A DNA stretch of 64,000 nt. It comes from Planctomycetota bacterium (GTDB lineage Bacteria > Planctomycetota > UBA1135). The translations under genes were made by a program, and so were the position numbers. A model generated the notes under the pieces. The model was not told the DNA's origin and did no database searches. It saw only the letters and a program-made list of their open reading frames with translations. The DNA lies in assembly GCA_018671175.1 (NCBI GenBank), contig JABHIE010000029.1:86929-150928 (forward strand). The letters are read 5' to 3'. This document shows positions 4,580-64,000 of the stretch, in pieces (the first letter of the stretch is position 1; the number at the start of each line of letters is the position of its first letter).

Positions 4580-5671
4580 ATGTCAGACCTCTCCGTCAAG
4601 GCACTCGTTGAAGTTGGCGCCCACATCGGTTGCCGCATCTCTCGCTGGAATCCAAAAATGGAGCCATTCATTCATGGCTCTCGGAACCGCATTCATATTA
4701 TCGACCTAAAAGAGACCATCCGTGGCATCTTGCGATCCAAGCATGTCATCAAAGAGGTCATCGCATCGGGTCAAGATGTACTCTTCGTGGGCACCAAGCC
4801 GCAATTGCGCGCTGAAGTCGCCAAAGTGCACGAAGCCACAGGCATGCCGTATGTCGACGACCGCTGGATTGGCGGTACTTTGACGAACTACGAAGTCATC
4901 GGTTCGCGTATTGCCTACCTCGAAGATCTCGAGCGTAAAGAGCGCGAAGGTTTCGTTGCGACTCTGTCTTCCAAGGCAGCGGCTCGTTTCAACCGCGAAA
5001 AGCGCAAGATCTTCCGTAACCTCCACGGTATTCGCGACATGTTCCGTTTGCCTGGCGCGATGATTGTGATTGACCCTAAAAACGAGCGCAATGCTGTCCT
5101 TGAGGCCAAGCGTATGGGCATCATGGTTTTGGGTGTCGTCGATACTGATTGCGACCCTGATGTTTGCGATGTGGTCATCCCTGCAAACGACGATGCGATT
5201 CGTTCGGTCGCCTACATTCTTGAGCATCTTAAAGATGCAGTCGAGGCTGGCAAAGTGATGCGCAAAGAGCGTGGCGTTGCGGCTCCGACTCGTCCAGAGC
5301 CTGTGCCAGAAAGCGCGCGTGGTGGCAAAGGCCAACGCCGTGGTGGTGGCGGTCCTGGTGGCAGTGGCGGTGGTCCTCGCGGTGGCGGCGGCTCAGGTGG
5401 TCGTGGCCCAGCACCAGCAGGTGGTGGTGGTGGCGCGCGTCGCCCTGCTCCTGGCGCACCTCGTCCAACTTTCCCAGGCGGTATCAATCGCCCGGTTGAA
5501 TTCAAGCGCGATGACGAAGCTGCCCCAGTGGCAACGGAAGCACCAGCGACTGAAGCTCCAGCCACGCCAGCCCCAGAGGCTCCGGTGGTTACCGAAACTC
5601 CTGCTGCGCCAGCCCCAGAGGCTCCAGCAACTGATGCACCAGCCACCGATTCGGCTGAGTTGTCAAAATAG
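4580..5671 (+). CDS. rpsB: 30S ribosomal protein S2 with ~130-aa Gly/Arg/Pro/Ala-rich C-terminal extension
   Basis: N-terminal ~225 aa is typical S2 (LVEVGAHIGCRISRWNPKM...IHIIDL...VLFVGTK...RWIGGTLTN...VIDPKNE..AV.EA...GI...VDTDCDPD). The rest is RGGKGQRRGGGGPGGSGGGPRGGGGSGGRG...EAPATEAPATPAPEAP... Confidence 0.95.
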   Translation: MSDLSVKALVEVGAHIGCRISRWNPKMEPFIHGSRNRIHIIDLKETIRGILRSKHVIKEVIASGQDVLFVGTKPQLRAEVAKVHEATGMPYVDDRWIGGTLTNYEVIGSRIAYLEDLERKEREGFVATLSSKAAARFNREKRKIFRNLHGIRDMFRLPGAMIVIDPKNERNAVLEAKRMGIMVLGVVDTDCDPDVCDVVIPANDDAIRSVAYILEHLKDAVEAGKVMRKERGVAAPTRPEPVPESARGGKGQRRGGGGPGGSGGGPRGGGGSGGRGPAPAGGGGGARRPAPGAPRPTFPGGINRPVEFKRDDEAAPVATEAPATEAPATPAPEAPVVTETPAAPAPEAPATDAPATDSAELSK

Positions 5672-5686
5672 CTGACCTAAATCGTC

Positions 5687-6286
5687 ATGACCATTTCCGC
5701 AAAAACAGTTGCCGAGCTCCGCACTAAGTCGGGCGCCGGCATGATGGAATGCAAAAAAGCCCTCGTCTCAACCGAGGGTGATTTTGATGCCGCCATGGAC
5801 CTCCTTCGCAAAAAGGGTCTTAAAGTCGCTGATAAAAAGGCTGACCGCTCGACTGCCGAAGGCCGTGTTTACTCTTACATCCATCACAACCAAAAGGTTG
5901 GTGTGTTGGTCGAGATCGCTTGCGAGACAGACTTTGTCGCGCGTGGCGAAGACTTCACCGCCTTGTGCCATGACTTGTGCATGCACATTGCCGCAACCAT
6001 GCCTAGCCCAGTTTCGGTTTCTGCTGATGAGGTGCCATCTGAGCTCGTCGAAGATGAGCGCAACATTCTGCTTGGCTCCGAAGACATGGCCGGCAAGCCT
6101 GACGACATCAAAGAAAAGATTGTCGATGGCCGCATGGACAAGTTCATCAAAGAGCGCGCATTGCTCTCTCAAGAATATGTGAAAGACCCATCTATGAGCG
6201 TCGAAGACCGCGTAAAAACGGCCATCGGCAAGCTGGGCGAAAACATCAAAGTCAGTCGCTTTGCGCGATTCGAACTCGGCGCATAG
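5687..6286 (+). CDS. tsf: translation elongation factor Ts (short form)
   Basis: ISAKTVAELRTKSGAGMMECKKALVSTEGDFDAAMDLLRKKG... UBA-like N-terminus plus the EF-Ts core; sits downstream of rpsB as usual. Confidence 0.95.
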   Translation: MTISAKTVAELRTKSGAGMMECKKALVSTEGDFDAAMDLLRKKGLKVADKKADRSTAEGRVYSYIHHNQKVGVLVEIACETDFVARGEDFTALCHDLCMHIAATMPSPVSVSADEVPSELVEDERNILLGSEDMAGKPDDIKEKIVDGRMDKFIKERALLSQEYVKDPSMSVEDRVKTAIGKLGENIKVSRFARFELGA

Positions 6287-7013
6287 TTTGACTTCTTCGG
6301 GCGACTTCAAGTACCGCCGCCTTCTCCTGAAGGTCAGCGGCGAGGGTTTCGCTAGCGAAGATGCCACAACTCTTGATACCGAAAGAGTCAAAGTGCTCGC
6401 AAGTCAATTGCGGGCACTGATTTCTTCTGGGGTCGAGGTGGCGTGCGTCATTGGCGGCGGCAATATTTTGCGCGGTAAGCAATCCGAGCAACTCGGTATT
6501 GCGCGCGCAACGGCAGATTACATGGGCATGCTGGCCACCATTATTAATGGCTTGGCCCTTTGCGATGCCCTCGAGGCTAATGGCGTGCCCACACGGGTCA
6601 TGTCAAGTATTGATGTGCATAAGGTCTGCGAGCCTTTCATCCGTCGTCGCGCTTTGCGTCACATGGAAAAGGGGCGAGTCGTTGTTTTGGTGGGCGGTTT
6701 AGGCAGCCCATATTTCACGACCGATAGCACTGCGGCCCAACGAGCCGTTGAGTTGGGTTGCGATGTCTTGCTCAAAGCCACAATGGTTGATGGCGTTTAC
6801 GACAAAGACCCCAAGCATCATGATGATGCGGTCAAGCTGCCCGATTTGACTTTCGATGATGTCCTGGCTCGCCGCTTGCGCGTCATGGATCAAACAGCAT
6901 TTACCCTTTGCTCTGAAAACGATTTACCTTTAGTCGTTTTCGAAATGACCTCTCAAGACGGCGTTTTGCGCGCTGCTCGTGGCGAGGCGATTGGCACACT
7001 CATCCATAACTAA
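6261..7013 (+). CDS. pyrH: UMP kinase
   Basis: YRRLLLKVSGEGF...VIGGGNILRG...ADYMGMLATIINGLAL...VVVLVGGLGSPYFTTDSTAAQRA.E...KAT.VDGVYDKDP. The ATG at 6261 overlaps tsf by 26 nt; an in-frame TTG at 6288 (just after the tsf stop) is an alternative start. Confidence 0.9.
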   Translation: MRDSNSAHSLTSSGDFKYRRLLLKVSGEGFASEDATTLDTERVKVLASQLRALISSGVEVACVIGGGNILRGKQSEQLGIARATADYMGMLATIINGLALCDALEANGVPTRVMSSIDVHKVCEPFIRRRALRHMEKGRVVVLVGGLGSPYFTTDSTAAQRAVELGCDVLLKATMVDGVYDKDPKHHDDAVKLPDLTFDDVLARRLRVMDQTAFTLCSENDLPLVVFEMTSQDGVLRAARGEAIGTLIHN

Positions 7014-7594: not shown

Positions 7595-7609
7595 GCGTTC
7601 GCGTTTAAC

Positions 7610-7685
7610 GGGGGCATAACTCAGTTGGTAGAGTAGTTGGCTTTTAACCAATAAGTCCCAGGTTCGAGCCCTGGTGCCCTCACCA
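7610..7685 (+). tRNA. tRNA-Lys (anticodon UUU), CCA encoded
   Basis: Hand-folded cloverleaf. Acceptor GGGGGCA/TGCCCTC (one G-U pair). D arm ACTC-AGTTGGTA-GAGT. Anticodon arm GTTGG-CTTTTAA-CCAAT (TTT at 7643-7645). Variable loop AAGTC. T arm CCAGG-TTCGAGC-CCTGG. Discriminator A, then CCA. Confidence 0.9.
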
Positions 7686-7694
7686 TTTTTTTTT

Positions 7695-7724
7695 CACCGA
7701 CCTTTACGGGTCGGTGTTTTTTTT
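7695..7724 (+). terminator. rho-independent terminator after frr/tRNA-Lys
   Basis: CACCGACC (7695-7702), loop TTTACG, GGTCGGTG (7709-7716), followed by T8 (7717-7724). Confidence 0.8.
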
Positions 7725-7738
7725 GTCCTCCACCTGAG

Positions 7739-8695
7739 TTAAAGGGCTGAGCCCTGGCGAGTGCCGCGGCGAATCAACTCGTTTTCAATCGCCGAGTGGA
7801 CGGCTTGCCGACTAGGCCAATCAAGTGGGGCAAGTCGTTCTTCGATGGGCGATTCAGCGACCAAGCGGTGGACGACAACATCTGCGGGCAAGTGCTCAAG
7901 GGCATCCGCCACGCGATCAATGTAATCTTGATGCTTCAAAATATGGATATCATCTTGGCCGTTCAGGAATTGATGCGCTAGCAAAGTTTTCTTAAGCACC
8001 ATGAGCTGATGGAATTTAACTCCATGCGCGCGCGCTTTGCGTATTTCAGCAACCTGCTCAAGCAGGCTTTCATCTGAGTCACCCGGCAAGCCGCTCATGC
8101 AATGCGCGATGATGCCAAGCCCGTGCTGGTGTGCGAGTTCACAAGCGCGATGGAAATGCTCAAGCGTGTCGTGGCGCCCAATGCGCTTTTGGACTGCGTC
8201 TTGAGCCGTCTCAAGGCCGAACTCGACCCAAACCTCATCAAAGTGCGAGCGCGACTTTGCGAGGAGCTCGGCGGCCTCTTCGCTGAAGCAATCTGGGCGC
8301 GTGCCAATGCTGACGATCGGCGCAATAGTTGACCACTGGCTCGCAATTTTGAGACCCTCTTGAAGTGGGGCTAAGTCTGGGTAGGTGTTGGAATACGACT
8401 GGAAATACAGAATGGCGGCTGGGTCGTCGGTATTTACGCGCCGCACACGCTTCAGCTCGGATTCCCACTGCTCAAGTAGTGGCAAACCTTTGCGCTCGGC
8501 GCCCGTGCCGGAACCAGAAAGGTCGCAATAGATGCATCCGCCAAACCCACTGGCACCATCGCGATTTGGGCAGGTTAAACCCAAATCAAGCATCACTCGG
8601 CGCAGCCGCCGTCCATAGAGCCTTTTAAGGTGGCGGCCAAGGCTGTAAACGGGTGCTGTGTTTTGCGTGTCGCTGGGGGGAGGGTTCGCTACCAT
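7739..8695 (-). CDS. radical SAM protein, TIGR01212/YhcC-like family
   Basis: ORF 7739-8734. LDLGLTCPNRDGASGFGGCIYCD... is the characteristic Cys cluster of this family. The internal ATG at 8695 (MVANPP) is preferred because the longer form would overlap divergent selB. Confidence 0.8.
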   Translation of the reverse strand: MVANPPPSDTQNTAPVYSLGRHLKRLYGRRLRRVMLDLGLTCPNRDGASGFGGCIYCDLSGSGTGAERKGLPLLEQWESELKRVRRVNTDDPAAILYFQSYSNTYPDLAPLQEGLKIASQWSTIAPIVSIGTRPDCFSEEAAELLAKSRSHFDEVWVEFGLETAQDAVQKRIGRHDTLEHFHRACELAHQHGLGIIAHCMSGLPGDSDESLLEQVAEIRKARAHGVKFHQLMVLKKTLLAHQFLNGQDDIHILKHQDYIDRVADALEHLPADVVVHRLVAESPIEERLAPLDWPSRQAVHSAIENELIRRGTRQGSAL

Positions 8696-8712
8696 TCCCC
8701 TCCATTCTAAAG

Positions 8713-10653
8713 ATGAGTGACCTTCGCCCCGCACCTTTGGTTATCGGCACCGCCGGCCATATCGATCACGGCAAAAGTGCCTTGATTGAGGCTTTGACGG
8801 GCGATCACCCCGATCGTTGGCGCGAGGAAAAGGAGCGCGGCATCACCATGGATTTGGGCTATGCCGAAATGGCCTTTGCCGATGGCCTTGAAATTGGTTT
8901 TGTAGATGTCCCTGGCCATGAGCGTTTGGTGCGCAAGATGGTTGCTGGGGCTACAGGCATGGGTGCCGCCATGATGGCCATAGCTTGCGACGATGGTGTT
9001 ATGCCTCAAACGCGAGAGCACTTTGAGGTCTTGCAATTGCTCGGCATTTCGCGCGGCATTTTGGTCTTAACCAAGGCCGATTTAGCCGATGAAGACACGC
9101 TTGAATTAGTACGCGAAGAGGTGGTTGAGTTAGTCCAAGGCACGCCTTGGCAAGATGTCCAGATCCTAAGTGTGAGTGCCCACACGGGGGCGGGTTTGCC
9201 AGAATTGAAGCTAAGTTTGCGTGAGCTGGCTGAGAGTCATCCAAACACTGGCCAGGGGCGCAGTCTCTTCCGCATGCCCGTGCAAAGGTCTTTCGCTATG
9301 CATGGCGCAGGCACTATTGCGACTGGGGTGTGCGCTTCAGGGCAGGTCGTAGCCGGAGACACGCTCGTCGCGATGCCAGCGGGCAAAAGTAGTCGAGTGC
9401 GCCGTGTGCAAGTCCATGGTCGAGATAGCGAAACGGGCAGTGCGGGTTTACGGACGGCACTCAATTTGCCCGACCTCAACCCGCAGCATTGCGTGCGGGG
9501 CACGGTCCTTGCGGCACCTGACTCACTTGAAGCTGGTGCCTTGTTGCGGGTACATTTGCAGTGGCTTCCTGATGCTCCGCAAATTCAACATGGGGCTCAG
9601 GTTCAGATTCTGTCCGGGACATCCTCTGTTGATGGCCGCGTTTTTTTGCCGCCAGCTTTAGCTCAAAAAGGTCATTTGGGCGCTTATCCTGATGGTTTAG
9701 TGGATATCGAATTGGCTGAGCCGATTGCACTCGCGCCTCGTGATCGTTTGATTCTTCGCCGCCCCAGCCCTGCTGTAAACCTAGGGCTGGGCCATTTTCT
9801 TGCCTTTGGTTCATACCGTCTCAAAAAGCGTGATGCCGAAGAGCGGCAACAGCTTGAGCGCCTTGCCGAACACTTGGCTGACCCCGACTGCTTTTTGATT
9901 GCCCTGCTCGAAACATACGGAGCCACGCCGACTTCCACCCAGGCCTTGGCCTGCCGCATGGGCTGGCATCACGAGGCCACTTCCTCTGCACTGATGCAAG
10001 CCTGCGCACAAGGTCAAGCTCGGCAAGTCGGCGAAGATCGCTTTCTCGGGATGTCAGGCTCAGGCGCATTCGCCCAACAGGTGGCCTCCATTCTCGGTGG
10101 ATGGCGGAGAGATTGCTCACATCGTTTGCTCATCCCTATCACACATTTGCGCGACGCGCTTGGCAAAGAGGGGTATCGCTCTCTCAAAAAGGCTCCAGAT
10201 GAAGAGCTCGCCAGTTACGGATTAGAGCGTATGCCCGGCACGCATTGGCGATTGCGCGGCGTAACACTGGGCGTTGCTTTGCTCGCACGCGCGCAGGCGA
10301 TTCATGAGGTCTTAGAGCGGGCGCAGTTTCAGCCACCGTCCTTTGATGTATTAGCTGAGTCCTTTGGTGCGTTGTCTGAAGTCGAGATTTGCATCGATGT
10401 TTTGCTCGACCAGGGGTGCGTTGTCCGTCCTGAGCAGGGTTTTGTTTTAGCCGTTTCTTGCGCAGAGGCTTTGCGCAATCGGGTGGTCGAGCAACTTCAG
10501 GGCAGTGGCATGGATATCCCTGCTTTGCGCGACGAATTTCAAACCTCGCGTAAGTTTTTAATGCCCTTGCTCGAATGGCTCGATGACCGCGGCGTCACTA
10601 TGCGTCGCGCCGGAAACCGCGTTTTGCGCGATGCCACAGCGAGTTTGACTTAA
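8713..10653 (+). CDS. selB: selenocysteine-specific translation elongation factor SelB
   Basis: ORF 8653-10653. From the ATG at 8713: VIGTAGHIDHGKSALIEALTG...DRWREEKERGITMDLGY...VDVPGHERL...TKADL GTPase motifs. The long C-terminal winged-helix region ends ...RKFLMPLLEWLDDRGVTMRRAGNRVLR, typical of SelB. Confidence 0.9.
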   Translation: MSDLRPAPLVIGTAGHIDHGKSALIEALTGDHPDRWREEKERGITMDLGYAEMAFADGLEIGFVDVPGHERLVRKMVAGATGMGAAMMAIACDDGVMPQTREHFEVLQLLGISRGILVLTKADLADEDTLELVREEVVELVQGTPWQDVQILSVSAHTGAGLPELKLSLRELAESHPNTGQGRSLFRMPVQRSFAMHGAGTIATGVCASGQVVAGDTLVAMPAGKSSRVRRVQVHGRDSETGSAGLRTALNLPDLNPQHCVRGTVLAAPDSLEAGALLRVHLQWLPDAPQIQHGAQVQILSGTSSVDGRVFLPPALAQKGHLGAYPDGLVDIELAEPIALAPRDRLILRRPSPAVNLGLGHFLAFGSYRLKKRDAEERQQLERLAEHLADPDCFLIALLETYGATPTSTQALACRMGWHHEATSSALMQACAQGQARQVGEDRFLGMSGSGAFAQQVASILGGWRRDCSHRLLIPITHLRDALGKEGYRSLKKAPDEELASYGLERMPGTHWRLRGVTLGVALLARAQAIHEVLERAQFQPPSFDVLAESFGALSEVEICIDVLLDQGCVVRPEQGFVLAVSCAEALRNRVVEQLQGSGMDIPALRDEFQTSRKFLMPLLEWLDDRGVTMRRAGNRVLRDATASLT

Positions 10654-53955: not shown

Positions 53956-54954
53956 TTGCCGAGAGCTTTCCGCGCGGCATTTACATTAGTCGTTTTTATT
54001 ACGGCTTTCTGGACGACATCGGCCATCGTGCGCGCGTTCGTTCCCGAGCAAATGAAGTTTGCTTGGTTGCTCGAAATCGAAGACGACATGGAAGTCATTT
54101 TTGTTGGCTCTAGCCATGTGCTGAGGCAAATGGACCCTGCCGTTTTGCATCATGAATTGTCAAAAGCTGGGCTTGATTACGACGCCTTTAATTTGGGCTA
54201 CCCAGGTGCGCATTTTGCCGAAACTACTTATTGGGCGGATCGCATCTTAGACCGCAAGGTGCCGAATCTGAAGGTGTTGGTTCTTGAAGCCGCTACTTTA
54301 GAGGGGGGGATGAACCCTGAAAACGATTTGTCAAGGCGACAAATTGAGTGGCACGATGAGCGGCGGATGGCATCCGTATTGCGCGTCTCTGCCGATTTTG
54401 ATTCTTTTGGGCGGCATTTTGCACATTATTTTCATCGACTAGGCAATTTAGATCGAGGGCCGGCTGCATTTGAGGCTTTGTTCTTTGGTGCATCTCGCGA
54501 TTTTGAGGGTAAGGCGGGTTTGGGCGTCAATCAAACTGGCTTCCGACCTTTTGTTGGCAACGGACAATCCAAATCAGAAAAGCGTCGGCATAAAGAATTT
54601 CTGGCCGATGCTGATCCATTTGAGGGTAAACGCCGCAGTGTCGTTGATGCGCCGTGGGATATCCCTGCTCACTTAGCACTAGAATCTGAAGTTGCTCGAC
54701 TGGAAGCCAAGGCCGAAGCCAATGGTGTACAGATTATTTGGTTGATTCACCCTGGCATGACTCCAGCCGAGGGCTGGAAAGATTTGGCTCGGCGTGAGGT
54801 GGCTTCGCGAGTGGTCGATTTCAGCGACTCAACTTTATCTTCCAGGTGGTATCAGCAAAATTTGCGGTTTGATTTTGACCATTTGAATGCAGTCGGCGCG
54901 AGCGAAATGACGCAGGAACTTGCCGGGGCCGTATTGCAACTTCCAACTTTATAG
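53956..54954 (+). CDS. membrane-anchored SGNH/DltD-like protein (putative O-acyltransferase partner of MBOAT)
   Basis: TTG start 10 nt after the GT2 stop. N-terminal TM; block-I-like VIFVGSSHV and block-V-like FDFDHLNAVGA. Paralog of 55026-55972. Confidence 0.55.
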   Translation: MPRAFRAAFTLVVFITAFWTTSAIVRAFVPEQMKFAWLLEIEDDMEVIFVGSSHVLRQMDPAVLHHELSKAGLDYDAFNLGYPGAHFAETTYWADRILDRKVPNLKVLVLEAATLEGGMNPENDLSRRQIEWHDERRMASVLRVSADFDSFGRHFAHYFHRLGNLDRGPAAFEALFFGASRDFEGKAGLGVNQTGFRPFVGNGQSKSEKRRHKEFLADADPFEGKRRSVVDAPWDIPAHLALESEVARLEAKAEANGVQIIWLIHPGMTPAEGWKDLARREVASRVVDFSDSTLSSRWYQQNLRFDFDHLNAVGASEMTQELAGAVLQLPTL

Positions 54955-55025
54955 TGAGCCGTCGGGGGTTTTTCTCCGCCTTGCCCGTCGGTTTGGCAGA
55001 GGTAGAATTTATATAGATTTGCGTC

Positions 55026-55972
55026 ATGAAAGTTCGCCTCTTTTCGCTCCTTGCTTTCTTCCTTGCTTTTGGCTTGGTGGCTACAGTCGTGCGTAGCATT
55101 CTCCCCGAAAGTGGTAAATATGCATGGTATTTACGGCAAGGCCAGTCTTCAGTAGAAAGCGACAAGGTGGTTTTTATTGGCTCAAGTCACATTTATCGAC
55201 AGCTTGACCCGGACCAATTTGAAAAAGAAATTGCGTCTCTTGGGGGTGAATTACAGGCTTTTAATCTTGGTTTGCGTGGTGCACATTTATCCGAAACGAC
55301 ATTGCAAAGCGCCAGGTCGATTGGCACGACTTGACTCGTAGCTTAGATTGTGGCTTTGCTTTGTGGCAGCATTGGCTGCGCCGCCCTTCGCCTGCTTTTC
55401 TGCTCAAGCAGGTCATTGATGCCGTGCGGCATACGCGTTTTTTTGCGAAACGATTCACGAATGCGGGGGCCGCTAGTGATTTCTTGGCAATGCTCGGGCG
55501 TAGCACTCAAATGCCGATTGCCGGGCATCAGGAAATCGTCGGTCATCAAGGTCGTGGGTTTTCCCCCTTGCAGGGCCGCTCATTTGATGAGCAAGCACTC
55601 AGTCGATTTGCATCGCTCCAGACAAAACGCCGCAAATCTGAAATGCTGGCAACGGCCATGCCAGCATCAGCGAAATCACCGTCTGCGCCGATTGAGCTTG
55701 AGCGAGTCGTGGCTCGACTCGAGGCATCTGCGGCACAAAAAGGAGTATCCATTTTATGGTTCATTCATGCAGGCGCCGGTGAGAGTGATTGGCACTCTCT
55801 TCAGCAGCAAGGTGTAATTCAGCACCTTATCGATTTCTCTGATCCCACACTTTCCTCCGAGTGGTATGGCGAAGAATTCCGCTATGATTATGGGCACTTG
55901 AACTGGGAAGGTGCAAAGAAGATGACATCCATCGTGGCACGCAAAATTCATTCTCTCGATTCTTCTAACTGA
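55026..55972 (+). pseudogene. disrupted paralog of the SGNH/DltD-like gene (internal deletion plus frameshift)
   Basis: ORF 55026-55334 aligns with the N-terminus of the upstream gene (VVFIGSSHIYRQLDP...AFNLGLRGAHLSETT). Homology resumes in another frame at about 55307 (KRQVDWHD... vs RRQIEWHDE...) and runs through ORF 55331-55972 (...YDYGHLNWEGAKKM). About 35 codons (YWADRIL...PENDLS) are missing. Confidence 0.55.
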
Positions 55973-57375
55973 TGCTTTTTACGGAATTCCGTTTCCTACC
56001 GTTTTTCGTAATGGTGTTTGCCATACACTGGCTCCTGAGGGGGCCTCGATTGCGCAAAACTTGGCTGCTTCTTGCGAGTTACGCCTTTTACGCAGCCTGG
56101 GATTGGCGCTTTTTGTCGCTCATCTGGGCCTCCACTTTAGTCGATTATGTCGCGGGTTTGCGCATTTACGCAAGCAATGGCAAGGCAAAGGTTTGGTGGC
56201 TGCGCGCGTCTCTATTCGCCAATTTGGGCCTGCTCGGGTTTTTTAAATACTGGGGATTCTTCGTCGACTCAGGTGCCGAGTTTTTGTCATGGATGGGCAT
56301 CGACATGGCTGGCTCTTCGCTTGAAGTGATTCTCCCTGTAGGCATTTCATTTTTTACTTTTCAGACGATGTCGTACTCACTCGACATCTATCGTGGCAAG
56401 CTTAAGCCCACTCGTTCGCCACTAGATCTGGCGCTTTTTGTCGGTTTCTTTCCACAGCTCGTTGCTGGCCCAATCGTCCGTGCGGCTGATTTTTTACCGC
56501 AACTCAGCGCACCTCGTTTTTGGGCGGATGTCCGAGTTCGATCGGCCCTGATTCTCTTCACGGCCGGTTTTATTAAAAAGGCCTGTATCTCTGACCAACT
56601 TTCACCCTTTGTAGATCAGTATTTCGCCAATCCTGATTTATATACAGTCGGTGCCGCCTGGCTGGCTGTTGTCGGTTATGCCGTGCAGATTTATTGCGAT
56701 TTTTCCGGATATTCCGATATGGCCATTGCTCTTGCCGCTTTGCTGGGGTATCGATTGTGTCTTAATTTTAACTTCCCTTATCTTGCGAGCGATATCCGCG
56801 ATTTTTGGCGGCGCTGGCATATCAGTTTGTCGACTTGGCTGCGCGACTACCTCTACATTTCCTTGGGTGGCAATCGCGCGGGTTCGTTCAAGACCTATCG
56901 TAATTTAATGTTGACGATGTTGCTCGGTGGGTTGTGGCACGGTGCTGCCTGGACATTTGTCATTTGGGGTGCACTTCATGGTGTTGCCTTGTCTGTGCAC
57001 CGCCTCTGGGAATCACGCCGCGCGCCCGGCCAAGAACCTCATGCTTTGATGCGCGCCTTTTCACCCATCCTCACTTTTTGGTTCGTTTGCTTTTGTTGGG
57101 TTTTCTTCCGTGCTGGCGATTTTGAAACGGCAACGACTGTTTTGCGTGCATTTGTTTGGCTAGATGCTGACGGCATGCAAACTCTACCAATGATGATGGC
57201 CTGGGTCATGATTGGCCTTTTTGTTGCTCATCGCATCGCGGCAAAGGGCGCGTTTGTCAAACGCCTTGAGTCACTTCCAGAGCCTGTGTTCGCAGCTGGT
57301 TTAGGCGCGGTATTTGCCATTGCGCTGGCCTTTACGAGTGCCGATTACCAACCGTTTATTTACTTCCAGTTTTAG
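55972..57375 (+). CDS. MBOAT-family membrane-bound O-acyltransferase (AlgI/DltB/PatA-like)
   Basis: Multi-pass membrane protein with ...FWRRWHISLSTWLRDYLYISLGGNR... (conserved His block) and ...LGGLWHGAAW. TGATG overlap with the preceding ORF. Confidence 0.9.
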   Translation: MLFTEFRFLPFFVMVFAIHWLLRGPRLRKTWLLLASYAFYAAWDWRFLSLIWASTLVDYVAGLRIYASNGKAKVWWLRASLFANLGLLGFFKYWGFFVDSGAEFLSWMGIDMAGSSLEVILPVGISFFTFQTMSYSLDIYRGKLKPTRSPLDLALFVGFFPQLVAGPIVRAADFLPQLSAPRFWADVRVRSALILFTAGFIKKACISDQLSPFVDQYFANPDLYTVGAAWLAVVGYAVQIYCDFSGYSDMAIALAALLGYRLCLNFNFPYLASDIRDFWRRWHISLSTWLRDYLYISLGGNRAGSFKTYRNLMLTMLLGGLWHGAAWTFVIWGALHGVALSVHRLWESRRAPGQEPHALMRAFSPILTFWFVCFCWVFFRAGDFETATTVLRAFVWLDADGMQTLPMMMAWVMIGLFVAHRIAAKGAFVKRLESLPEPVFAAGLGAVFAIALAFTSADYQPFIYFQF

Positions 57376-58784: not shown

Positions 58785-59648
58785 ATGAGCGAGTGGTACT
58801 ACGGTTTTGAAGGGGAGCAAAAAGGTCCCGTCCCTGAGTCTGTTCTTCAGCATATGCTGGAGCGTGGCGGCTTGCCCGAAAAGACGCTGGTTTGGTCGGA
58901 AGGCATGGCCGAATGGGTTCCTGCAAAAAAGGTCGCCCAATTGCAGCCTCAGCCTGAGCAGCCTCGGGCTTTTGTTGAACCTCCGCCGCGCAAACCCAAG
59001 CCCGGCGTGCGAGATTTCCTTGGCGGCGATTCCTCTGACGACGCATCTTATGCGCCAAAGGGTGGGGCTGCCACGCTTGAGGCAGAGGGCACACCCAAGG
59101 CGACTGCGCCAAGCGCGCATCCACAAGCGGCTAATTCACAAGTCCGCCCCTGGGCGCGTTTTTGGGGTCGAATCGTCGACATTAGCCTTTTTCAAAGTGT
59201 GTTGATTATGCTCTTTGATCTCAATCCATTACATTTTAGCCACAGCCTTGGCGCGCTTTTTCTTTGGGTTTTTATCGATGCCTTTTGCATTTCTCGGTGG
59301 GGTGCAACGCCAGGTCGCTGGCTCATGCGCACACGCATTTACACATCCAACGGCATGCTGTTGCCCTACAAAATAGCCGTCCAACGCAACATCGCCGTTA
59401 CCCTGCGCGGTATGGCGCTTGGCCTACCGCTTGTGAGTTTGCTCTTCATGATGCTGGCCTACAAAGAGCTCACCGAGCGCGGGATGACCTCCTGGGATCG
59501 CGAAATGGGGTCATCTGTTTCGCACCATCAAATTGGCGGTGGCCGTGTTTTGTTGACCGTAGTTTTGATGCTTGTGGTCTCTCAACTTGTGATGACACTT
59601 TCACCTGAGATTGCTGCCGAAATGTCTAATGGCTTGTTCGGAAGGTAG
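58785..59648 (+). CDS. GYF_2-domain + RDD-family membrane protein
   Basis: ORF 58671-59648, ATG 58785 preferred. MSEWYYGFEGEQKGPVPESVLQHMLERGGLPEKTLVWSEGMAEWVPAKKV (GYF_2), then RPWARFWGRIVD... and three TM helices (RDD-like). Confidence 0.7.
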   Translation: MSEWYYGFEGEQKGPVPESVLQHMLERGGLPEKTLVWSEGMAEWVPAKKVAQLQPQPEQPRAFVEPPPRKPKPGVRDFLGGDSSDDASYAPKGGAATLEAEGTPKATAPSAHPQAANSQVRPWARFWGRIVDISLFQSVLIMLFDLNPLHFSHSLGALFLWVFIDAFCISRWGATPGRWLMRTRIYTSNGMLLPYKIAVQRNIAVTLRGMALGLPLVSLLFMMLAYKELTERGMTSWDREMGSSVSHHQIGGGRVLLTVVLMLVVSQLVMTLSPEIAAEMSNGLFGR

Positions 59649-59654
59649 TCGATC

Positions 59655-61826
59655 TTATGGGTGCGTTGCCCAGCGATCTCGCCTTGCCTTTTCTGATGGC
59701 GCAAGCCCAGAGAGTGGCGCATCACCTGCGGCCTCTTCGCCTTCGAGTTGCACTCGTAAGAGCCAAAGCGAATAGAGCGCCTCGGGGCCAAGTGAGTTGG
59801 GCGGTGTCAGCCAGTAAGGTGTGAGTGCTTCACGCTGTTGGCCAAGCGCGGTTTGTAAGAGTGCATCGGCTGCAGCGGTCGCGACTTCGGGGTCAGTCGA
59901 GGCGAGCCAATTTAGAGCTAGCTCGGCGGCAGAGAGTCCACCGCATGCACCCAAAGCTTCGAGTGCGCGGACGCGCGTGCTTTCGTCTTGAATTGACGGT
60001 TTCAACACCGTCAGGATGCTTTGCTGATTTGTCGAAATCCATCTTGAAAGAGGCTTGCCAATCCAGGACATGGTTTGCAAAACATGATTGCGCACATAGG
60101 AGTCTTTCGCAGAGAGGTGCTCTATTAAAACAGAGTATGTGCGAGCTGGGAGGCCATGCCAAACCGTGCGCGCATCGTCGACAGGTCGCAGCGGTTGTGA
60201 AGCAAAATTAGTGCAAAGTCGCTCTAACTCAAGGCGCAAGGCGGGGCCTAGTTCGGGGCTGCCTAAGCCATCCTTGCGGAGGCTTCGGTATTGCTTCCAT
60301 TGCTCGATGTCGAGGTGAAGCTTTTCCCATTGCGCCTCAAATAAATCGGGTGCATCAGGAAGTCGCGCCAACAATGAAAAAGCGGCTTCTTTCGCTTCGA
60401 GGATGGACGCATCGTTTTGCTCCTCACTGCTCAAGATGCTAGAAATCGCAATCAAACCCTGCGCGCTGCCAAGGCGATATAGCGATTCAGCCATGTAAAC
60501 ATTAGATGGCCAGTCTTTTTCGTATTTTAAGCGCAAAGTGAGCCGTGGTAATGCCGCTGGCGTTGCGCGTGGAATAAGTTGCCGGTAAGCCTCGCGCCGC
60601 AAGTCAGTTGGGAAATCCCGCCATCTTTCGCCAATCGTAAGCAGTAATTCATTCACCTCCGAATCGGGCTGTGCAGCCAGCTCATCCAGAGCGCTTGCTC
60701 CAACTCTTCCGCCCATCAGAATGGCATCTAGCCAGTCGGCAACATGCTCAATCTCTTGCGCATCAGGCCGGGTGTACGGGGCGGCCTGCGTCATCTCGTC
60801 GCCGGTATTGTCTGGCGCAGTCAAATCAGAAGAAACCTTGAGTGTTCGCTCGTCTAGGTCTTCGAGTGGAAGTCGAGCGATTTCGAAACTATCGGCATCC
60901 GCAAGAAACGGCTGCGTGCGATAAAGAAGGCGTGCCTCACCCAAAGTGGTGTTTGCAGGTCTCTCAAGGCCAAAGACTCGTGTTTCGCCGGGCTGCAATT
61001 GAGAGTTGCTTAAGCTCACCTCATCTCGGTAAGGGTCGCGCATACGGTGGACGAGCTCCCAATCACCCCAGTCGCCATGAGTCTGCCACCTAACCTGAAT
61101 GTCAGCCGCACGAGATCGTTCGTCAGTGGGGAAGTTGTGCGCACAACCACTATTGCGGATGACAAGTTGAGTCTGCCCATCAGAAGTGCGGTTGGCGCTT
61201 AATTCAACGGCCTTTTTGAGAGCCTCTGCATCATGAGCCGCCGGGAAGCCATGGTGTCGACCCTTGCGACCGCCCTGTCGCCATGCATCGACCATATGGC
61301 AGTGCAGACAGTTTTGCCCTTTCAAATCAGTGTCTTGGGTTGCCTGCCATTGCACGATTGTTTTGTGTTGGTTGTGGCATGCGGCACAGTGATTGACATC
61401 AATCATGCGCGGCTCGAATACGGGTTGGCAAGGCGCGTTGTTTTGAGGCCTTGGGTTGCCCGTCGCGATTCGGCCACTTGCGGTTGCATGGCAGGAAAGG
61501 CAGCTCACGCCATCTGTGCGAGAAGTGACTCGCGCTAAAACTCGCGCGGCTGGCTCGAAGTTCAAAACAGGCTGCGGCGCGTGACAAGCAATGCACTCTT
61601 GATTGCGATACTCTTGGCTTAAACGACGGACTTCGGGGTTTTCATAAGCAAGTGCATGGTGCGAGGTCGCCCATTCTGCGGCTACAGCCGGGTGGCATTC
61701 GGCGCATTGCTCAGCTGTAAACATGGGGCCAATTTGATCGACCTCGGGCTCTTGCTGGGGCATGAAGATGGCAAGCAAAACAGCGCATCCGCCGGCAACT
61801 AGAAAAAAAGCTAAGAAGCGTTTCAT
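59655..61826 (-). CDS. pentaheme c-type cytochrome fused to a C-terminal HEAT-repeat domain
   Basis: Signal anchor. Five CxxCH motifs in the first ~180 aa (CAECH, CIACH, CLSCH, CAACH, CLHCH). The C-terminal ~380 aa is helical with HEAT-like repeats (DSYVRNHVLQTMSWIG, DESTRVRALEALGACG, TDPEVATAAADALL). Confidence 0.8.
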   Translation of the reverse strand: MKRFLAFFLVAGGCAVLLAIFMPQQEPEVDQIGPMFTAEQCAECHPAVAAEWATSHHALAYENPEVRRLSQEYRNQECIACHAPQPVLNFEPAARVLARVTSRTDGVSCLSCHATASGRIATGNPRPQNNAPCQPVFEPRMIDVNHCAACHNQHKTIVQWQATQDTDLKGQNCLHCHMVDAWRQGGRKGRHHGFPAAHDAEALKKAVELSANRTSDGQTQLVIRNSGCAHNFPTDERSRAADIQVRWQTHGDWGDWELVHRMRDPYRDEVSLSNSQLQPGETRVFGLERPANTTLGEARLLYRTQPFLADADSFEIARLPLEDLDERTLKVSSDLTAPDNTGDEMTQAAPYTRPDAQEIEHVADWLDAILMGGRVGASALDELAAQPDSEVNELLLTIGERWRDFPTDLRREAYRQLIPRATPAALPRLTLRLKYEKDWPSNVYMAESLYRLGSAQGLIAISSILSSEEQNDASILEAKEAAFSLLARLPDAPDLFEAQWEKLHLDIEQWKQYRSLRKDGLGSPELGPALRLELERLCTNFASQPLRPVDDARTVWHGLPARTYSVLIEHLSAKDSYVRNHVLQTMSWIGKPLSRWISTNQQSILTVLKPSIQDESTRVRALEALGACGGLSAAELALNWLASTDPEVATAAADALLQTALGQQREALTPYWLTPPNSLGPEALYSLWLLRVQLEGEEAAGDAPLSGLAPSEKARRDRWATHP

Positions 61827-62482
61827 GAAAGTTGGCCGTCATGCAAATTTAGTGATTGGCCACCGAGTCGCTTGGCTTCATCGGCATCATGGGTAACAAG
61901 GATGAGCGTTGCCTTTGTGTGGGTCAGGATTTCTTCTAGCAAAAGTTGACCTTGCTGACGCGCTTCAGGGTCAAGGCTGGCAAAGGGCTCGTCCAGAAGA
62001 AGGATTTTTGGCTCAAGTGCAAGCGCTCGCGCAAAGGCTAGGCGGCGAGCTTCTCCGCCTGAAAGTGTCGCGGGTTTGCGGTCTGCCAAAGAAAGAATGC
62101 CCAATCGGTCAAGCATTGTGCGCGCGCTTGATTCTGCTATTGCTTTTGAGCGACCCGCGGCTCGCAGCGCATCAGAGACATTGCGTAAAACGGTGCGCGT
62201 TGGCCACAAGCCGAGGTCTTGAAAAACCATCTGCAAATTGCGTTTCCAGGGCGGAATGACAACTTTTGAGCCCTTTGTCGCGAGTTGACCACGGATTTGA
62301 ATCGTGCCAGAATCAGCTGGCTCAAGCCCGGCAAGGATGCGCAATAAGGTCGTCTTGCCTGCTCCGGATGGCCCACATAAAGCTAGGCGCTCACCGTCTT
62401 CCAGAGAAAGGTTGATGCCGTCGAGTATTTTTTTTGCACCTAAGGTGCGCGAGAGATTTTGAATGTGGATGGAGGCAGTCAT
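61823..62482 (-). CDS. ABC transporter ATP-binding protein (importer type)
   Basis: GPSGAGKTTLL, LSGGEARRLAFARAL, ILLLDEPFASLD. ATGA overlap with the cytochrome gene. Confidence 0.9.
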   Translation of the reverse strand: MTASIHIQNLSRTLGAKKILDGINLSLEDGERLALCGPSGAGKTTLLRILAGLEPADSGTIQIRGQLATKGSKVVIPPWKRNLQMVFQDLGLWPTRTVLRNVSDALRAAGRSKAIAESSARTMLDRLGILSLADRKPATLSGGEARRLAFARALALEPKILLLDEPFASLDPEARQQGQLLLEEILTHTKATLILVTHDADEAKRLGGQSLNLHDGQLS

Positions 62483-62485
62483 CGC

Positions 62486-63988
62486 TTAAGCATCGTTAGG
62501 TTTGGAAAAGAGCGCGTGGATGGCAACGGGAAGAAAGAGAAGCAGAGTAATCAGTAAACCAAAAGCGGCGACGAAATTGTCTCGCGCAAAATGGAGTGCG
62601 TTGTAGTAGCGCACAGCAGCGGAGGCATTTGCGGCTGGCAGAAGGACGGCCAAATCTAATTCACGAATCGCAAAAACGGCGACCAAGCCGGCGCCAAGCA
62701 GCCATGCATCGCGGCAGGTGGCGAGGCGCACATAAAGCAAGCGAAACAGGTAAGGCATCCCGGTTAGGCGCGCGCTTTCGATGCGTGCTTGCGGAATGCG
62801 AGACATCCGCTCGGCGAGGAGGAAAACGGCAATGGGTAAGTAACGGCCTCCTAGAACCAAACCTGGCATTAGGAGACTGTCGTAGAAAGGCTCCCAGCCG
62901 GGGCGGTTGAAGGCAAGGATGGCACCCAGGCCAGTGCCGACCGCAGGAGCGAGCAGGGGGAGTGCGAGCAGAGTGCCGAATAATCTTGCGGCTCGTTTTC
63001 GCCAAGGCTGATGATGGCCTCCGAGTTGAAGCCAAAAGTGCGCTAGGAAGGGTGCGACAAGAAGTGCAAAAGCACCAGCAAGTGCGCCGAGAGCCAGGGA
63101 ATGCCCCAAATCACTGCGGCCTCTCTGGACGGCATCTGAGAAAGCCGCTGTCGCGTGGGATGCCCAGGAGCCTTGTGATTCAGGGCCCGTCGCGCCTGTC
63201 TCGTAAAGGATGCGCCCTAATGGAAGAAAGAAAAGTAAAACGCTGAAAGATAGAAGTGCAACTGAAAGTGGAATGCAGAGAGACCCGCAGCGCATTGGTT
63301 TTGCGATGCGTGAGCTGTTGCTTTCGAGTGCGCCGGCTCGATCGCGGAGGACGAAGGCCGCGTAGAGAGCAAGAGCAGAAACGGCCACGAGTGGTGCAGC
63401 GACGGCAGCACCTTGTTTCAGCGTGGCAGGGTCGCCTTGGTAGGAGCGCCAGTGATTGAAAACTTCGGCGGGATAGACGGAAAACTTATCGCCCAAAGAA
63501 GAGAAGTAGTCGGGTACTGCGAAATCGGTAGAAGCGAAAACGGCTGCAAGAGTTGCACCCAAAATGGCCGCAGGTGCGGAAACGCGGAACATCTCATTGA
63601 GAGCAAAGCGAGGCCCGGCGACAAGCAAAGTTGATTCGTGGGCGCTCGCTTGTTGGTGGCGTAAGGCGCGAGCAACAAAGAGTGCGCTGAGTGGGGCATA
63701 GGCAAGCCCGAGTGACCAAACACTCGCCCAAGGGCCGTCCATGCCTGTTAAACCGTGCCACGCTTGGGCGAGAAGCAAGGGTGGTAGCAATAGCGGCAGA
63801 GGCAAAAGGAAGTGAAGCCATCCAAAACCTGGCAAGTGCAATCGGCTGGCTAAAACCGCCGTTGGCCAGCCGACAAGTAGAGCGATGAGCCCTGAGAGGG
63901 CAGACATCCAGAGGGTTTGGGCGAAAAGCCCCGCGAGTCGAGGCTCGAAGATGGACGCCCATTCTTGGGGCGAGAGGAGGGTTTGCAA
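62486..63988 (-). CDS. ABC importer permease, duplicated-TMD Fe(III)/thiamine (FbpB/ThiP-like) type
   Basis: 500 aa, about 12 helices in two repeats; 3-nt gap to the ATPase gene. The substrate-binding protein gene is presumably beyond the window end. Confidence 0.7.
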   Translation of the reverse strand: MQTLLSPQEWASIFEPRLAGLFAQTLWMSALSGLIALLVGWPTAVLASRLHLPGFGWLHFLLPLPLLLPPLLLAQAWHGLTGMDGPWASVWSLGLAYAPLSALFVARALRHQQASAHESTLLVAGPRFALNEMFRVSAPAAILGATLAAVFASTDFAVPDYFSSLGDKFSVYPAEVFNHWRSYQGDPATLKQGAAVAAPLVAVSALALYAAFVLRDRAGALESNSSRIAKPMRCGSLCIPLSVALLSFSVLLFFLPLGRILYETGATGPESQGSWASHATAAFSDAVQRGRSDLGHSLALGALAGAFALLVAPFLAHFWLQLGGHHQPWRKRAARLFGTLLALPLLAPAVGTGLGAILAFNRPGWEPFYDSLLMPGLVLGGRYLPIAVFLLAERMSRIPQARIESARLTGMPYLFRLLYVRLATCRDAWLLGAGLVAVFAIRELDLAVLLPAANASAAVRYYNALHFARDNFVAAFGLLITLLLFLPVAIHALFSKPNDA

Positions 63989-64000
63989 AAGCGGCGCCAG

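Follow-up and report, generated by a model that had tools for sequence, protein, structure and literature searches.

The window analysed here, a stretch of 64,000 nucleotides from a Planctomycetota bacterium (assembly GCA_018671175.1, contig JABHIE010000029.1, positions 86,929 to 150,928 of the forward strand), was found to end in three adjoining minus-strand genes which encode, in order of transcription, the permease and the ATPase of an ATP-binding cassette (ABC) importer and a protein joining a pentaheme cytochrome to a HEAT-repeat solenoid (Table 1). Comparison with related loci showed these to be the last three genes of a predicted five-component, translationally coupled cassette typical of Planctomycetota. 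Its components, as judged from the relatives, would be a lipoprotein binding protein (lying just past base 64000), a fused permease of 12 transmembrane (TM) segments, an ATPase, a membrane-anchored pentaheme cytochrome and a HEAT protein, and they probably form a physically joined set. A preliminary description of this DNA had given the order and coordinates of the three open reading frames (ORFs), a 3-nt gap between the first two genes and an ATGA overlap between the last two, all of which were confirmed, the gap and the overlap being read in the window sequence itself. The same holds for its account of the cytochrome-HEAT protein as a periplasmic protein with five hemes and a HEAT domain, to which five CXXCH motifs, a Pfam HEAT_2 match and a signal-anchor correspond.

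Table 1. Features of the cassette genes at the edge of the window (residue numbers refer to the cytochrome-HEAT protein; aa, amino acids; AF2, AlphaFold2 model; pLDDT, predicted local distance difference test score)
Feature	Position	Strand	Evidence or remark
Fused two-module ABC importer permease, ~12 TM	62486..64000	-	N-terminus cut by window edge, ~14 codons missing
Gap between permease stop and ATPase start, 3 nt	62483..62485	-	Read directly: gcttaa gcg atgact
ABC ATPase, 219 aa, short form without C-terminal regulatory domain	61823..62482	-	Pfam ABC_tran, E = 6.7e-36
ATGA overlap of ATPase TGA and cytochrome ATG, translational coupling	61823..61826	-	Sequence read directly
Pentaheme-cytochrome/HEAT protein, 723 aa	59655-61826	-	ORF list; Pfam HEAT_2 at 613-678, Cytochrome_C554, Cytochrome_C7
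N-terminal signal-anchor, residues 1-22	61761..61826	-	AF2 helix at residues 2-21
Pentaheme cap, residues 38-198	61233..61715	-	Five CXXCH; profile match to 5ze8 and MccSep
Ig-like beta-sandwich, residues 199-322	60861..61232	-	AF2 strands at 207-321, pLDDT 65-90
PBS-lyase-type HEAT solenoid, residues 354-723	59658..60767	-	Pfam HEAT_2; AF2 helical repeats, pLDDT ~70-88

The permease ORF is listed at 62486-63988 (minus strand, 500 aa). Its frame is open to base 64000, so that the TTG at 63988 is not the true start; the fused double module of the preliminary description was upheld and its start position was not. What lies past base 64000 was inferred from 72%-identical relatives rather than read in this genome. 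In one of these (locus L001) the permease has 518 aa and begins MLALVAFATAAFWPLAPLLQTL, which places ~14 codons of the window copy beyond the edge. About 11 hydrophobic segments were counted in the window permease, with an EAA-like loop (ESARLTGMPYLF) in its C-terminal half, and one more TM segment is expected past the edge from the relative's 14 extra N-terminal residues. No match to the window permease copy was returned by a Pfam scan, in which its homologs do match BPD_transp_1. Each half of the homolog from locus L004 separately matches single-module families of the CysT/ModB/PhnU/PhnV type, and its full length matches PhnU2. Walker A, the LSGG signature, Walker B and the H-loop were all located in the ATPase, the best NCBIfam matches of which (GlcV, PhnT2, CysA and PotA) lie far under their cut-offs. 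With the fused double-module permease and the cognate binding protein in the operons of relatives, these motifs identify the transporter as a type I ABC importer. The database copy identical to the window's cytochrome-HEAT protein (P0001) belongs to a metagenome-assembled genome (MAG) of Planctomycetes and is annotated as hypothetical only.

The family was scanned with one genome per species, and 263 genomes were found to encode a relative of the cytochrome, the best 80 of these being nearly all uncultured Planctomycetota; a word-indexed homolog search gave 10 matches only, a figure which badly understates the size of the family. The ATPase gene lies upstream of the cytochrome gene in 75 of 76 loci with at least 700 nt of upstream sequence, and where at least 3.7 kb is available, binding protein, permease and ATPase all precede it in 67 of 68 loci. 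At the junction of the ATPase and cytochrome genes, 60 of 81 loci keep the 4-nt overlap and seven have one of 10 nt. Six independent locus look-ups each returned binding protein, permease, ATPase and cytochrome/HEAT on one strand, an order which holds even in relatives of 32-39% identity with unrelated flanks, and a distant 852-aa fused form of the cytochrome is also preceded by ABC genes. Conservation of the linkage in relatives had been set beforehand as a refutation test, and the linkage proved to be conserved across Planctomycetota at the frequency just given, which rules out a chance adjacency of importer and cytochrome. The binding protein predicted upstream of the permease was likewise found directly upstream in 67 of 68 relatives, the 72% relative included.

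Two subfamilies were distinguished, between which all cassette components switch in concert: a marine subfamily, to which the window belongs, has the short 219-aa ATPase, and the ATPase of the other (subfamily B, from sludge, soil and freshwater) has ~340 aa. One locus labelled Myxococcota (L030, JBLINB010000021.1) carries the cassette with flanks (arginase, PGM/PMM, RDD) syntenic with marine Planctomycetota loci, which suggests a mis-binned or mislabelled MAG. The linkage was also tested in reverse, from metagenome contigs with a binding protein of the TDTDD type described below. Among 33 such loci with at least 3.4 kb of downstream sequence, 18 carry the cytochrome, six have permease and ATPase genes but no cytochrome, and nine are without adjacent ABC genes; in the subfamily of the window, all four loci with enough DNA carry it. 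It follows that the cytochrome nearly always accompanies the transporter, but that a transporter of this type can exist without it. The neighbours of the cytochrome-free loci are heterogeneous. Each component belongs to a known family; no description of their combination was found in the literature searched.

The N-terminus of the cytochrome is a hydrophobic 17-mer throughout the family (median Kyte-Doolittle value 2.49), which is preceded by Lys or Arg in 75 of 85 sequences and ends ~19 residues before heme 1. The five CXXCH motifs, at residues 41-45, 78-82, 109-113, 147-151 and 173-177 of the window protein, are present in 86 of 86 aligned sequences. His57, His154, His192, His230 and an extra Cys133 are invariant or nearly so in the same set, as is His198 (84 of 86). 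The set of five non-motif histidines for five hemes suggests that all may be bis-His ligated, a set which would be typical of outer-sphere electron-transfer proteins. Within the Ig-like domain the motif N225-x-G-x-x-H230-N-F-P-T-x-E236-R-x-R-A-x-D242 is invariant or nearly so (Glu236 in 85 of 86), and R261, R263, Y266 and E269 are also conserved. An AF2 model of the cytochrome-HEAT protein could not be used for the heme region, where pLDDT is <50 and hemes are not modelled.

A profile of cytochrome-only members matched the pentaheme cytochrome c552 of Thermochromatium tepidum (5ze8) over the heme cap and the Ig-like domain with E = 6.7e-29, and the Geobacter selenoenzyme MccSep with E = 6.5e-17. 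The former is the closest solved homolog and has the H-x-x-P-T motif in common with the cassette cytochrome; it is, however, a soluble protein without TM anchor, HEAT partner or ABC linkage, and has Arg in place of His154. MccSep (ExtKL, GSU2937-2936) is a polysulfide reductase in which heme 2 is His/Cys-ligated through C239 and Sec325 reaches in from the Ig-like domain, and its family proper is defined, in a preprint, by a conserved Sec or Cys at the U325 site. It shares the five-heme cap and the Ig-like stem, and its catalytic Ig loop aligns with the invariant GHNFPTxERxR loop of the cassette cytochromes. At the position of Sec/Cys325, however, these have Glu236, C239 aligns with Thr156 (two residues past the invariant His154, in a loop where the alignment is uncertain by a few residues), and Cys133 aligns with Ala in MccSep. 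MccSep is moreover a soluble homotetramer not linked to a transporter. The replacement of Sec325 and C239 sets the cassette cytochromes apart from MccSep proper, and by sequence comparison they are a new clade of the c552/MccSep superfamily.

An N-terminal TM helix with heme 1 within ~20 residues is also found in NapC, NirT, CymA and NrfH, and weak Pfam Cytochrom_NNT matches were obtained for the cytochromes of two relatives (E = 4.8e-8 for L088 and E = 7e-8 for P0012). This is a resemblance only, and the fold family of the NapC/NrfH-type quinol dehydrogenases differs from that assigned to the cassette by profile; by analogy with them the cassette cytochrome might oxidise quinol. At the locus of the 852-aa fused form (L089, 555-1928) a second, Cytochrome_C554-type cytochrome of 457 aa and a DUF1573 Ig-like protein were observed before the binding protein, and a DUF1573 protein also stands before a cytochrome-free copy of the transporter (L118).

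The fused cytochrome-HEAT gene of the window is a minority form, seen in six surveyed loci besides. Separate genes for a cytochrome of ~320 aa and a HEAT protein of ~410-430 aa were found in 79 loci, and in 50 of 63 of these they overlap by 4 nt. That split forms are numerous was confirmed by an exhaustive profile search, which gave 1048 cluster representatives at E <= 1e-30, a count inflated by giant unrelated HEAT proteins. The separate HEAT proteins bear lipoprotein signal peptides with lipoboxes, from which the HEAT domain would be periplasmic in fused and split forms alike. Family motifs were recognised at residues 429-438 (LRLKYExD) and 546-550 (LRPVD). Profile matches of the HEAT part in the PDB were to alphaRep proteins and CpcE (5n3u, E = 1.1e-11), and a Foldseek search with the cytochrome-HEAT model returned generic solenoids only. 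A HEAT_PBS/HEAT_2 solenoid is thus common to CpcE/F-type PBS-lyase HEAT-like proteins and the cassette HEAT protein. A bilin lyase function is nevertheless unlikely because the HEAT protein would be periplasmic, and phycobiliprotein genes were seen in none of the loci.

A further fusion bears on how the cytochrome is placed. At locus L090 (7001-8842), and also at L091, an otherwise intact cassette encodes ATPase and cytochrome as one protein of 613 aa, in which a Pro-rich linker and then a TM helix lie between the two; the two assemblies are of near-identical length and are probably from one sample. Such a fusion makes topological sense, and it suggests that the cytochrome would sit on the transporter. 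P0142, considered as a second ATPase-cytochrome fusion, was discarded as it looks chimeric. An ApbE flavin-transferase domain was observed fused to the HEAT protein P0052 (L172, 1370-3547), and ApbE is encoded just downstream of the cassette at L057 (6523-7449) and L065 (8333-9217), which brings the association to 3 of 172 loci in all. The invariant TGTTLT of the binding protein resembles the ApbE target motif, SGAT(L/V)(T/S). The likeness is probably a coincidence, as the site is an ordinary anion site in FbpA and in a glucose-6-phosphate (G6P) binder.

The cassette binding proteins carry lipoprotein signals and the pipeline name "iron(III) transport system substrate-binding protein". They were found to have the FbpA fold (profile E = 6e-31 to HitA), and the AF2 model (pLDDT 91.6) has TM-scores of 0.8-0.89 to FutA1, HitA and cFbpA, with FutA1-Fe(II), IdiA and HitA as best structural neighbours. 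The residues H9/E57/Y195/Y196 of Haemophilus influenzae FbpA, however, align with invariant Asp30/Asn82/Asp218/Asp219, and the Tyr-Tyr pair aligns with Asp-Asp in alignments with HitA, VmFbpA, hFbpA and cFbpA alike. TDTDD stands in place of NNYY in 66 of 66 cassette binding proteins and a Tyr-Tyr motif in none. Authentic FbpAs cannot do without these tyrosines, and a documented mis-annotation of this kind is that of AfuA, an "iron" protein which truly binds sugar phosphates (PMC10182148). With its ferric ligands replaced, the binding protein is therefore predicted to take a substrate other than ferric iron bound in the classical way. The anion site at a helix N-terminus is retained (TGTT in the cassette, SGA in FbpA, SSGTA in VcA0625), as is N198. 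The acidic Asp/Asn/His pocket beside it would fit either a cation with a synergistic anion or a polar organic molecule bearing phosphate or amine groups.

The label "Fe(III)/thiamine-type" in the preliminary description thus did not survive, given the replaced ligands in all 66 proteins, the want of a Fur box above shuffled sequence, the lack of a thiamine pyrophosphate (TPP) riboswitch in 16 loci and a promoter of the sigma-54 type. A thiamine importer (ThiBPQ) was rejected since TIGR01254 scored 28-31 bits against a cut-off of 93 and no TPP riboswitch was found. Identity with the PhnSTUV or PhnS2T2U2 importers was likewise rejected, all scores being under the NCBIfam cut-offs: the permease gave 79 bits with PhnU2 (cut-off 593) and the ATPase 174-220 bits with the PhnT2 type (cut-off 458). 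Cytochrome c maturation (Ccm) and heme uptake were dropped, as these use different classes of transporter and binding protein. Like the type I importers FbpABC, FutABC and HitABC, the cassette importer combines a single fused double-module permease with a single ATPase gene and a binding protein of cluster D. It differs from them in having Asp/Asn/Asp/Asp for the His/Glu/Tyr/Tyr ligands, in lacking Fur control, and in adding two obligatory periplasmic components (cytochrome and HEAT protein) and a sigma-54 promoter. AfuABC/VcA0625 and PhnSTUV belong to the same transporter family and also have FbpA-like binding proteins without the tyrosines, but they have no cytochrome, and the TDTDD acidic cluster (H-D in VcA0625) is specific to the cassette subfamily.

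Of 31 marine-subfamily loci, 26 were found to have a sigma-54-type -24/-12 element (GGCACG-N4-CTTGCTA) 26-28 nt before the ATG of the binding protein, where the background rate is 0.009 per 400 nt. At 71-76 nt upstream, 24 of the 31 have a palindrome of 16 bp (GTTCCC-N4-GGGAAC; background 0.013 per 200 nt). Transcription in this subfamily was thus shown to be served by a predicted dedicated sigma-54 promoter with a palindromic operator. The element is present in the 72% relative of the window (L001, 6690-6716), within the 76-nt gap after a same-strand sulfatase gene. The distance of the GG from the ATG predicts a nearly leaderless transcript with a leader of 1-3 nt, an unusual pairing with a sigma-54 promoter, which would fit the chain of overlapping genes downstream. 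In all sequence searched, independent metagenome loci included, this architecture was found only before this cassette, so that no regulon could be inferred. In subfamily B, sigma-54-like motifs occur in ~15 of 37 loci at variable distances. An Rfam scan of 16 loci returned no match to a TPP or any other riboswitch.

Clustering of the gene neighbourhoods gave mostly clade synteny. A metal importer consisting of ZnuA, an ABC-3 permease and an ATPase adjoins the cassette in 21 marine loci (L007, L010-L044), 2.3-8.6 kb downstream of the cytochrome start and on the opposite strand, together with a 426-aa protein without Pfam match. The window and L001 have no adjoining ZnuA-type importer, with MobB and an MBL-fold hydrolase in its place. 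Nramp and DUF4198 genes lie near L005. A pair of NtrC-type regulators was found beside one cassette, and arginine decarboxylase and agmatinase beside one cytochrome-free copy of the transporter. In eight marine loci (L001 at 5060-6640, L006, L012, L013, L015, L042, L045 and L047) the gene immediately before that of the binding protein, on the same strand, encodes a sulfatase, an adjacency which may be due to chance as Planctomycetes carry many sulfatases. In six subfamily-B loci (L004 at 4889-6319, L088 at 7596-8978, L053-L055 and L063) the gene immediately upstream encodes a protein of 460-476 aa with beta-propeller-like repeats and no significant Pfam match, two copies of which are 60% identical, and which may be a lineage-specific sixth component.

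Two observations concern the sequence on the other side of the cassette. A membrane protein with GYF_2 and RDD domains (~58785-59648, plus strand) converges on the cytochrome-HEAT gene, with 6 nt separating the stop codons, and is kept in 27 marine-subfamily loci and not in subfamily B. At 55026-55972 (plus strand) two neighbouring ORFs of 102 and 213 aa in different frames jointly resemble an intact 332-aa ORF at 53956-54954 (plus strand), with which they share the motifs VxFxGSSHxxRQxDP and DFSDxTLSSxWY. The pair looks like a paralogous partner of the MBOAT gene (55972-57375) disrupted by a frameshift or a sequencing error; three intact paralogs stand in L001 at the place of the window's ORFs at 53956-55972.

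From these data we infer, as the preliminary description had proposed, that redox-coupled uptake is the most attractive reading of the cassette. In the form preferred here, which is tentative and carries well under even confidence, the importer would be supplied with a reduced cation, either Fe(II) or Mn(II), by a periplasmic reductase. The cytochrome would be held on the transporter by its own TM helix, with heme 1, close to the membrane, as the entry point for electrons, the donor of which may be menaquinol. It would reduce an oxidised species outside the cytoplasm, the most plausible being Fe(III) or Mn(III/IV) in chelated or colloidal form. The carboxylate-type binding protein would capture the resulting Fe(II) or Mn(II) without delay, perhaps together with a synergistic anion, for the pump to carry it into the cell. 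The HEAT solenoid may serve as the scaffold holding cytochrome and binding protein together. A metal cation is favoured by the four former ferric-ligand positions, all of which still carry potential metal ligands (D/N/D/D), by the anion site kept beside them, by the metal binders among the structural neighbours of the binding protein, and by the ZnuA-type importer next door in 21 marine loci, with the Nramp and DUF4198 genes near L005 as further context. A redox enzyme or carrier is favoured by the constant five CXXCH motifs, by the invariant C133 and a loop rich in Arg and Glu, by the homology to c552 and MccSep, and by the five-His heme set, which fits an all-bis-His outer-sphere reductase. 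The hosts are found in oxic habitats, where Fe(II) is short-lived and such channelling would pay. Known systems in which a periplasmic redox protein is encoded beside a metal permease (FtrABCD, EfeUOB and FetMP) are alike in concept only: they use unrelated proteins (a cupredoxin, a DyP peroxidase and Ftr1-type permeases), oxidise Fe(II) and are not known to involve an ABC importer or a multiheme cytochrome.

Several findings weigh against reductive metal import. Metal binding by the cassette binding protein is itself a proposal, and an FbpA-like fold also binds sugar phosphates, pyridoxal phosphate (PLP) and metal-citrate. In sequence the binding protein resembles the G6P binder VcA0625 (LVVYCS, NPRADV, SSGTA/TGTT) almost as closely as it does FbpAs, and its best NCBIfam family is one for 2-aminoethylphosphonate (PhnS/PhnS2, 67-80 bits against cut-offs of 310-395). 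The sole biochemically characterised homolog of the cytochrome is a polysulfide/selenite reductase. A sigma-54 promoter is atypical for Fe or Mn uptake. The Fur box for which the preliminary description had called for a search upstream was not found in the relatives' loci, where the best matches to the E. coli consensus, the only one scored, were no better than in shuffled sequence, and a tblastn search with E. coli Fur found no Fur-family gene near the cassette. The metal-transporter neighbourhood may be mere clade synteny. Fifteen of the 33 metagenome loci with a TDTDD binding protein are without the cytochrome, and the lone exception to the linkage (L087, the weakest match) is a cytochrome-HEAT pair without ABC genes which is flanked by HEAT/TPR proteins.

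In a rival explanation the substrate is no metal at all, but a polar zwitterionic or phosphorylated organic compound such as an aminophosphonate, a sugar phosphate, an amino-sugar phosphate or a polyamine-like molecule, the cytochrome-HEAT protein then being a co-regulated scavenging enzyme, possibly linked to nitrogen. The top NCBIfam scores (PhnS/PhnS2, PhnU2 and PhnT2) point this way, as does the local identity to VcA0625 with its conserved phosphate site, and the Asp/Asn/Thr/His pocket would suit hydroxyl or amine groups. The cassette has a sigma-54 promoter, the classic type for nitrogen-scavenging transporters, and the NtrC-type regulators and the arginine decarboxylase and agmatinase genes noted above are in keeping with it. 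Every one of the family scores is, however, far under its cut-off, and the tight 4-nt coupling, together with the fusion of ATPase and cytochrome, speaks for a common task beyond mere co-regulation. We also know of no role for a multiheme cytochrome in the uptake of such organic compounds, and the operator palindrome is unlike the proteobacterial NtrC site, both of which count against this explanation. On balance it is judged unlikely.

If the cytochrome acts on the transporter rather than on the substrate, it might signal the redox state of the periplasm or the quinone pool through its TM helix and switch import on or off, with no chemistry on the substrate. The TM anchor and the ATPase-TM-cytochrome fusion would put it in the right place, hemes that are likely all bis-His suit electron storage or sensing, and the existence of the transporter type without cytochrome is compatible with such a gate. 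Five hemes, a charged Ig-like loop at the catalytic position of MccSep and a HEAT partner of 370 residues are nevertheless heavy equipment for a sensor, no signalling domain is present, and we consider this role quite improbable.

Sulfur or selenium chemistry of the MccSep kind, in which the cytochrome would reduce polysulfide, selenite or a related compound and the importer would take up the product, appears very improbable. It could draw on the homology to MccSep and c552, on the invariant extra C133 with an Arg-rich loop, and on the sulfatase gene directly upstream in eight loci. Against it, Glu236 stands at the Sec/Cys site of MccSep, the heme ligand C239 is replaced, His154 being close by, and MccSep has Ala at the position of C133. 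An acidic binding pocket is unsuited to oxyanions, and record titles place many of the hosts in oxic ocean water and activated sludge. A classical FbpABC-type Fe(III) importer with a cytochrome reducing Fe(III) before or after its capture by a ferric binding protein, the form given in the preliminary description, can almost be set aside: FbpA, FutA and HitA are the closest solved structures and the pipeline name agrees, but the tyrosine ligands which define ferric binding, essential in authentic FbpAs (PMC10182148), occur in 0 of 66 binding proteins and there is no Fur box over shuffled sequence.

ABC importers are textbook machines which move their substrate unchanged. An ABC importer with its own electron-transfer subunit was not met with in the literature searched, and to our knowledge none carries one. 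Importer genes which overlap, and are sometimes fused with, the gene of a pentaheme cytochrome in at least 263 species suggest that a chemical step is built into uptake. Whether the cassette amounts to a truly new mechanism of redox-coupled import is doubtful on present evidence, and it is possible, with less than even likelihood, that a multiheme cytochrome is here, for the first time, an integral part of an ABC importer. Electrons, which might come from the quinone pool, would then run along the five hemes of the anchored cytochrome and turn an oxidised extracellular species that is otherwise unavailable into one which the binding protein recognises, with reduction, capture and ATP-driven import channelled in one complex held by the HEAT protein. 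For annotation, the findings mean that thousands of database entries are named "iron(III) transport system substrate-binding protein" without any ferric ligand, and that the c552/MccSep cytochrome family is enlarged by a sizeable new clade in which the active-site residues differ. If reductive import is true, the cassette would provide a hitherto undescribed way of acquiring Fe or Mn by reduction, one that is widespread among Planctomycetota of the sea and of wastewater and is under dedicated sigma-54 control. Should the substrate be Fe or Mn, this would explain how abundant uncultured Planctomycetota of these habitats obtain the metal from oxidised or chelated pools, and would add a mechanism to models of trace-metal cycling in the ocean.

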